Origin: Escherichia coli
GTDB taxonomy: Bacteria; Pseudomonadota; Gammaproteobacteria; Enterobacterales; Enterobacteriaceae
Strand: one strand, 5' to 3'
Assembly (NCBI RefSeq): GCF_044647545.1
Contig: NZ_CP172818.1
Length of the DNA stretch: 64,000 nucleotides
Shown: positions 57,531 to 57,548 of the stretch, piece by piece
Position numbering within the stretch: the stretch's first letter is position 1
Layout of the letters: every line of letters begins with the position of its first letter
Notes under the pieces: model-generated
Seen by the model: the letters and a program-made list of their open reading frames with translations, nothing else
Database searches by the model: none
Told to the model about the DNA's origin: nothing
Program-made: the position numbers and the translations under genes

Positions 57531-57548
57531 GGGAGGATGACTCACTGG
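57531..57548 (-). other. Isolated copy of the tRNA-Arg 3' end (18 nt)
   Basis: TGGTGCATCCGGGAGGAT identical to the first 18 nt of each tRNA-Arg copy on this strand, then unrelated sequence. Confidence 0.5.

Follow-up and report, generated by a model that had tools for sequence, protein, structure and literature searches.

Repeats of tRNA 3' ends are already known, as is the RtT element (Rfam RF00391, gathering score (GA) 45 bits), which for decades has been known only from the tyrT operon. There, 178-bp tandem repeats in the transcribed trailer of tyrT-tyrV end in the last 19 nt of tRNA-Tyr. RtT is reported to contain a tandem GA motif (PMC7657543). A 175-bp VNTR has been described in Salmonella rtT, and a link of rtT to the stringent response has been proposed. 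The gene, rttR (b4425), overlaps the ORF tpr, and its annotated 3' end is the A of the repeated tRNA-Tyr CCA.

Fragments of tRNA genes are also known from integration. In E. coli K-12, pawZ, ptwF and pauD are tRNA fragments at the ends of integrated prophages or islands, and the T loop is a typical crossover zone of tRNA-targeting integrases. Such integration-made fragments are common in prokaryotes and, like the sequence described here, are short direct repeats of a tRNA 3' end near the intact gene (PMC9897764).

In this paper we analyse a stretch of 64,000 nucleotides of E. coli DNA (assembly GCF_044647545.1, contig NZ_CP172818.1; hereafter the window), in which an orphan 18-nt copy of the tRNA-Arg(ACG) 3' end lies beside a tRNA array. 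The fragment belongs to a conserved, transcribed and structured RtT-type unit, and we consider it likely that the 18-mer forms the 3' end of a diverged repeat of this type. What appears to be new is the Arg-linked branch, its cloverleaf form, its near-universal presence in E. coli and its escape from both Rfam and RefSeq; a literature search gave no account of an Arg-linked unit, and older literature may mention long spacers.

Units were sought in one genome per species (298 Gb) as the 18-mer followed by anything but the tRNA continuation, and in metagenomes as an RtT core with a junction that was neither that of Arg nor that of Tyr. Alignment A1 consists of 150 unique 82-nt units, the final 20 nt of which are fixed by the search pattern, and covariance model R1 was built from Arg units only. 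The integrity of the locus in E. coli was followed with a query made of the concatenated flanks without the array; a 5-kb query spanning the array was uninformative, as the repeats split the places found. Published Term-seq ends were taken from a table that prints 10 nt beyond each 3' end.

Positions 57374-58745 of the window are the yqaB / serV-argV-argY-argZ-argQ / csrA locus of E. coli, with the tRNA operon, and all features of it given below, on the minus strand. The operon opens with serV, a tRNA-Ser(GCU) called by ARAGORN at 58152..58244, and upstream of it is a promoter-like site, TTGACT-16-TAATAT (58307..58334), recognised by consensus match only. Four identical tRNA-Arg(ACG) genes, supported by ARAGORN and by Rfam tRNA matches, occupy 57653..58148, namely argV (58072-58148), argY (57932-58008), argZ (57793-57869) and argQ (57653-57729), and the spacers among them are short, 62-63 nt only. 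Downstream of the 75-nt unit described below, a terminator-like hairpin, ACGCUAAAGUAGCGU and then CAUAUUUUU, is found by sequence at 57400..57414, ~30 nt upstream of the yqaB start codon. The equivalent place in K-12, ~100 nt past the terminal unit, is 2817550, a published Rho-dependent 3' end on the minus strand (PMC7815308), and since the two coincide the tRNA operon may stop just before yqaB, or run into it. A solitary tRNA-Met(CAU) gene lies away from the array, at 25622-25697 on the minus strand of the window.

The orphan 18-mer, TGGTGCATCCGGGAGGAT (as RNA, AUCCUCCCGGAUGCACCA), occupies 57521-57538 and is an exact copy of the end of tRNA-Arg, in which the final 2 nt of the T loop are followed by the 3' strands of the T stem and the acceptor stem and by ACCA. 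The sequence-only reading had noticed this lone tail, which is a real repeat (0 matches in 100 dinucleotide shuffles), but had set it 10 nt too high, at 57531-57548. Its distance from the first full copy, argQ, had been put at about 105 bp and is 114 nt by measurement, or 132 nt from start to start, a value near the repeat period of the tRNA array, 139-140 nt. Nor is the repeat confined to the 18 nt reported at first: an 8-nt copy of the argQ 3' trailer (57513..57520; RNA UCUUCUCC) lengthens it to 26 nt of 100% identity, with 57513-57538 equal to 57645-57670. There is, in addition, an imperfect inverted repeat of 17 nt between the orphan and 57579-57595.

Together with its ACCA, the 18-mer makes up the 3' strand of the closing helix, P1, of an RtT-like unit of 75 nt (57521..57595) in the trailer of the last tRNA-Arg gene, which matches model R1 at 72 bits (E 1e-17). 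The 5' arm of P1, GCACCAGGGAGGAU at 57582-57595, pairs with the 18-mer in the fold, and the alignment to R1 and the fold place between the two arms a degenerate H1 (57566-57579), H2 with GCCC-GAA-GGGC (57554-57564) and H3 with a tandem G.A (57541-57554). The unit folds with a dG of -31.8 (z -2.5), with H2 and H3 intact and H1 disrupted, and it is because of the disrupted H1 that it scores 72 bits, against 95-111 bits for typical units under R1. Upstream of the unit, a further hairpin, H0 (GCGG-UAUUAA-CCGC, 57598..57611), is folded by the Escherichia-type linker; its counterparts in other genera, judged by eye, appear to form hairpins from different sequences. By sequence comparison the linker runs from the argQ 3' end to H0 at 57612..57652, and linker and unit together form a block of 132 nt that other strains have gained or lost. 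Neither ARAGORN nor the Rfam tRNA model called a tRNA at 57513-57652, an Rfam search of the window unit matched no family, RtT included, even at E<=10, and the short ORFs that overlap or adjoin the unit lack conservation and do not use the tpr frame.

The scan of one genome per species returned 103 loci, of which ~6 were unrelated chance matches without a unit and ~97 were enterobacterial and in the same context. Units occur in Escherichia, Salmonella arizonae, Citrobacter, Enterobacter, Klebsiella, Raoultella, Kosakonia, Pluralibacter, Cedecea, Erwinia, Pantoea, Brenneria, Pectobacterium and Serratia. In all Enterobacterales loci found, a tRNA-Arg(ACG) gene of a serV-led array precedes the 18-mer by 112-120 nt, and such arrays often hold several copies of the unit and often a terminal one as well. 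Over some of the tRNA-Arg(ACG) genes ARAGORN also made antisense 'tRNA-Arg(tcg)' calls (loci L011, L017, L032, L050, L060, L063, L079, L081, L084 and L094), which are probably false positives arising from the palindromic character of tRNA.

The units share a common structure, in which P1 (the 5' arm and the tRNA-derived 3' end) encloses H1 (GUUGC-loop-GCAAC), H2 (CCC-loop-GGG) and H3, the last closed by a C:G pair and a tandem G.A/A.G. For typical units the MFE structure is the cloverleaf (z -5.2 and -4.2; MFE frequency ~0.5). Across the 150 units of A1, 96.7% of cells are paired, versus 30-49% when the partners are slid, and two-sided compensatory cells number 88, versus 21 +/- 3 in shuffles, none of 500 shuffles being as high; the compensatory changes are seen in the three inner hairpins. 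The tandem G.A and A.G positions are kept in 137/150 and 145/150 units, and the loops of H3 are frequently GNRA or UUCG. Columns 33 and 54 of A1, which flank H1, are A.G in 124 units and G.A in 21 and almost never anything else, a covariation that points to a non-canonical pair conserved at this junction. Two-sided covariation is absent from P1 because the search pattern fixes its 3' strand, and among substitutions in the 5' arm 93 break pairs and 60 keep them. Units with a mutated 3' arm, which were found by the covariance model, are mostly uncompensated, and some have no CCA. An RNAalifold consensus missed the closing helix and gave a spurious hairpin in the invariant 3' end, so that P1 is drawn only from single-sequence folds and pairing frequencies.

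The Arg-linked units resemble RtT of tyrT-tyrV in several ways. Both are tandem repeats in the transcribed trailer of a tRNA operon, both vary in copy number, and both finish with the terminal 18-19 nt of the adjacent tRNA, from T-loop A58/A59, followed by the trailer of that tRNA. They share a core of H1 (GUUGC..GCAAC), H2 (RCCC-GAA-GGGC), H3 with tandem G.A, and the GAGUAAUCC junction; the tyrT repeats have ..AGCGUUGC-CGCA-GGCAACGACCCGAAGGGCGAAGCGCGCAGCGCUGAGUAAUCC.. in common and then the 3' end of tRNA-Tyr, not that of tRNA-Arg. Model R1, built without them, matches all four K-12 tyrT RtT repeats at 30-35 bits (E ~1e-8). In the opposite direction, RF00391 scores Arg-linked units of Serratia rubidaea at 67.3 and 64.4 bits, above GA, and those of C. 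koseri (35-38.6 bits), K. pneumoniae (27-40 bits) and K-12 (31, 29.2 and 22.8 bits) below it; none of 15 further Arg-array loci reaches GA, and all Arg-linked units tested from Enterobacteriaceae, Erwiniaceae and Pectobacteriaceae fall under it.

In other respects the Arg-linked units differ from RtT. They are attached to tRNA-Arg(ACG) rather than tRNA-Tyr, the enterobacterial form lacks ~40 nt of the RtT 5' domain including GGUUCGA, and in that form the 3' end of tRNA-Arg finds its direct complement in the 5' arm, which gives a cloverleaf of 75-78 nt. The enterobacterial form scores 23-40 bits, compared with a GA of 45, it has no RefSeq annotation, and there is no tpr-like ORF. The window copy, wholly undetected by RF00391 and hence below its threshold, keeps H2 and H3 of the three-hairpin core with tandem G.A that the Arg units have, stands behind a tRNA gene of like orientation, and has the 3' end of that tRNA, CCA included, as its own end. 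We place the enterobacterial Arg form within RtT as a compact, sub-threshold branch.

In metagenomes, Rfam-positive RtT units were found that finish with the 3' end of tRNA-Lys(UUU), of a tRNA-Ser-like gene or of another tRNA, and in the Lys-linked units the repeat also spans the trailer and terminator. The tRNA-linked members of RtT each bear the last ~19 nt of their own tRNA, from T-loop A58. Ending in the cognate tRNA 3' end is usual, not universal, in RtT. Dispersed RtT copies, several per contig (e.g. Ga0153931_100003; loci L133-L135, L116, L122-L124, L127, L130 and L132), score 47-57 bits with Rfam and have no tRNA within 900 nt; they are not CCA-ended, and a CCGCCUAAGCGGC hairpin comes next. 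Given the Lys-, Ser-like- and other-linked units and these dispersed copies, RtT is a broad family.

The 106 nt specific to the block are present in 5357/5426 complete E. coli genomes (~99%), in 12816 places that are all chromosomal and none of which is annotated in RefSeq; 69 genomes are without a unit. The copies stand after tRNA-Arg genes, with a median of 3 and a maximum of 6 per genome, and the terminal copy adjoins yqaB in 4739/5425 genomes, ~13% being without it. K-12 has three units, after argV, argZ and argQ, and strain PCP06238 has four, one behind each tRNA-Arg. The ancestral repeat of the serV-tRNA-Arg(ACG) array is ~275 bp, that is, a tRNA and one unit, and of its units the window strain retains just the terminal one, with a damaged H1, the three internal ones having been lost.

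Copy number changes by whole units. With the concatenated-flank query, the array spans of 5425 genomes form classes ~135-140 bp apart, and unit gain and loss explains the differences in argVYZQ between strains, which come in steps of this size. In Nord58, which is without the terminal unit, the same left flank leads directly into a complete tRNA, and the orphan position is a real tRNA end. In E686 (L002:3360-3400, equivalent to window 57521-57595), a deletion of 69 nt has removed the hairpin interior exactly between two TGGTGC motifs, one being the first 6 nt of the orphan and the other 57590-57595, as expected for slippage across a hairpin. The ~135-140 bp steps and the Nord58 and E686 junctions fit recombination between shared tRNA 3' ends. 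We infer that the 18-26 nt shared with real tRNA genes provide a substrate for unequal homologous recombination, which would add and remove units and change the number of tRNA copies as well.

Because the unit lies between argQ and the terminator region, it is co-transcribed with the tRNA genes as a 3' trailer. Term-seq in K-12 gave minus-strand 3' ends at 2817684 and 2817959 with >80,000 reads each (PMC7815308). In the units behind argQ and argZ, these two positions correspond to the 3' base of H2, which is where the ends of the accumulating K-12 spacer RNA lie. The Term-seq tables, examined as text, list no end at the pseudo-CCA. Small-RNA products of 20 nt do map to the pseudo-CCA ends; their counts are a constant ~3% of tRNA 3' fragments, a constancy that makes them ambiguous, as they may be multimapped tRNA reads. 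A further end, 2818012, was considered as an RNase P product at unit position -1 and was dropped, as the Term-seq end maps to the loop of H0.

Acceptor/T-stem helices are recognised by RNase P and by 3' trimming enzymes. Like a tRNA minihelix, the unit has a closing helix of 13 bp, about the length of the acceptor and T stems, and a single-stranded ACCA end; unlike a minihelix, it has a three-hairpin junction in place of the T loop, and its helix has two conserved irregularities. The closing helix may imitate the acceptor/T-stem helix of tRNA-Arg, with the same ACCA and trailer, and by this mimicry the spacer RNA is probably trimmed at the pseudo-CCA by the enzymes that mature tRNA 3' ends. 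That rttR ends exactly at a repeated CCA also points to the pseudo-CCA of the Arg unit as a processing site. Trimming there would, by analogy with rtT RNA of the tyrT operon, release a stable by-product RNA, in which the GC-rich hairpins may stall exonucleases.

The unit is dispensable in E. coli, where its copy number is 0-6, and for this reason the view stays alive that it is a genuine RtT-type repeat that has no function, selfish or neutral, and is kept similar by gene conversion with tRNA genes. On such a view hairpins would persist since stable folding is harmless or slows decay, and the broken H1 of the window and the uncompensated mutations in 3' arms would be unsurprising; RtT itself has only a proposed link to the stringent response. 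However, the compensatory changes, the GNRA/UUCG loops and the tandem G.A in several Enterobacterales families argue for selection on the fold, the core is kept in several tRNA contexts and in dispersed copies, and there are abundant discrete 3' ends in vivo. We regard a functionless repeat as possible, though on the unlikely side.

A less probable proposal, and in our judgement a rather doubtful one, concerns the way in which the family may have spread: the RtT core would be a module that has settled repeatedly in the T loops of tRNA copies, between TTCGA and AAT, each time taking the cognate 3' end. The T-loop junction TTCGA / AAT is seen for Tyr, Arg, Lys and Ser-like tRNAs and at least one other. 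Were this proposal true, RtT would be a small mobile or recombinogenic element that targets T loops, or a general mimic of tRNA 3' ends by which transcription of tRNA operons is coupled to 3'-processing capacity or to the stringent response. The 75-78-nt cloverleaf of enterobacterial tRNA-Arg would in that case be a separate class of functional RNA, carried unannotated by nearly every E. coli.

The sequence-only reading had suggested, as one possibility, that the fragment was left by a deleted fifth copy of tRNA-Arg. An extra tRNA-derived repeat unit does indeed end the array, but it is a conserved RtT-type element found across Enterobacterales and no recently decayed gene. A recent remnant with its body deleted or scrambled would account for the 132-nt spacing, near the 139-140-nt period, and for a 5' arm that resembles the acceptor 5' strand and T-stem 5' strand. 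In Serratia, moreover, the variant units retain GGAGGUUCGA, the T-stem 5' strand and half the T loop of tRNA-Arg, before the core, and behind each come the trailer and intrinsic terminator that the tRNA also has. There is also a chimera in Citrobacter sp. wls619 (L093:5086-5197), in which a unit is kept over its 5' two thirds, up to and including H3, and then continues as tRNA-Arg with the anticodon arm, the T arm and the 3' end, and which looks like a recombination product of a unit and a tRNA gene. The interior of the unit, however, has no similarity to a tRNA body and is kept, with compensatory changes, from Erwinia and Pectobacterium to E. coli; the unit is homologous to RtT units on tRNA-Tyr, tRNA-Lys and other tRNAs, and some strains have one behind every tRNA-Arg, not just at the end of the array. 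A recently lost fifth gene is thus very improbable.

The other suggestion was an attachment-site scar, in which the fragment would be a displaced attR or attL half from a decayed element that had integrated at the 3' end of tRNA-Arg. The start of the repeat within the T loop and the frequency of integration-made fragments in prokaryotes would accord with this. When the junction was compared across strains, however, the yqaB and csrA flanks lay within ~2.6 kb of each other in 5410/5425 E. coli genomes, which leaves no insertion larger than ~2 kb between them, and the exceptions inspected, a subset, consisted of an IS1/IS3 insertion, an IS2 insertion and one rearrangement, with no integrase-bearing element among them. 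As the flanks stay together and no integrase was seen, the reading as a scar is refuted by the condition that the sequence-only reading had itself set, and we give it almost no credence. Unlike the tRNA fragments of prophages and islands, the orphan has no element, integrase or foreign DNA between the repeats. The 114 nt between them are a conserved structured unit that occupies the same place in many genera, and phages and viral contigs carry nothing that resembles it, a search of phages, plasmids and viral contigs having been negative or having returned mislabelled chromosomes only. The repeat also runs into the trailer of the tRNA itself, and in Serratia and in Lys-linked units into trailer and terminator; a trailer inside the repeat is the signature of tandem duplication, not of insertion.

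Two of the genomes with separated flanks show local events at the array. In E. coli KTa005 (L003:3417-5303), an IS1, itself split by an IS3-family element, lies between the orphan and yqaB, ~10 nt from the 18-mer (~57510 of the window). In E. coli IH5 (L006:11030-11994), the array is cut to serV and one 74-nt tRNA-Arg fused to a truncated pdeC beside soxS; the breakpoint, whether produced by chromosomal rearrangement or by misassembly, is inside the tRNA-Arg array.

Chance occurrence of the 18-mer can be dismissed, given its absence from all 100 shuffles and the ~6 chance matches against ~97 enterobacterial loci in 298 Gb.

With the fragment read as the 3' terminus of an RtT-type unit, it is no evidence of past integration at argQ, and a false lead is removed. 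On this reading RtT gains a compact sister lineage, housed in the operon of tRNA-Arg(ACG) and present in ~99% of complete E. coli genomes and across Enterobacterales, that escapes both the Rfam threshold and RefSeq annotation. The at least 150 variants, with their compensatory changes and cognate 3' ends, offer comparative leverage on the role of RtT. Units are also removed or added in experiments that delete or duplicate argYZQ, which confounds the interpretation of such experiments. In K-12, deletion of argY, argZ and argQ lowered tRNA-Arg2 16-fold, not 4-fold, and reduced editing of the remaining copy (PMC13170351). By its coordinates this deletion also takes out two RtT-like units, the role of which was not considered in that study.
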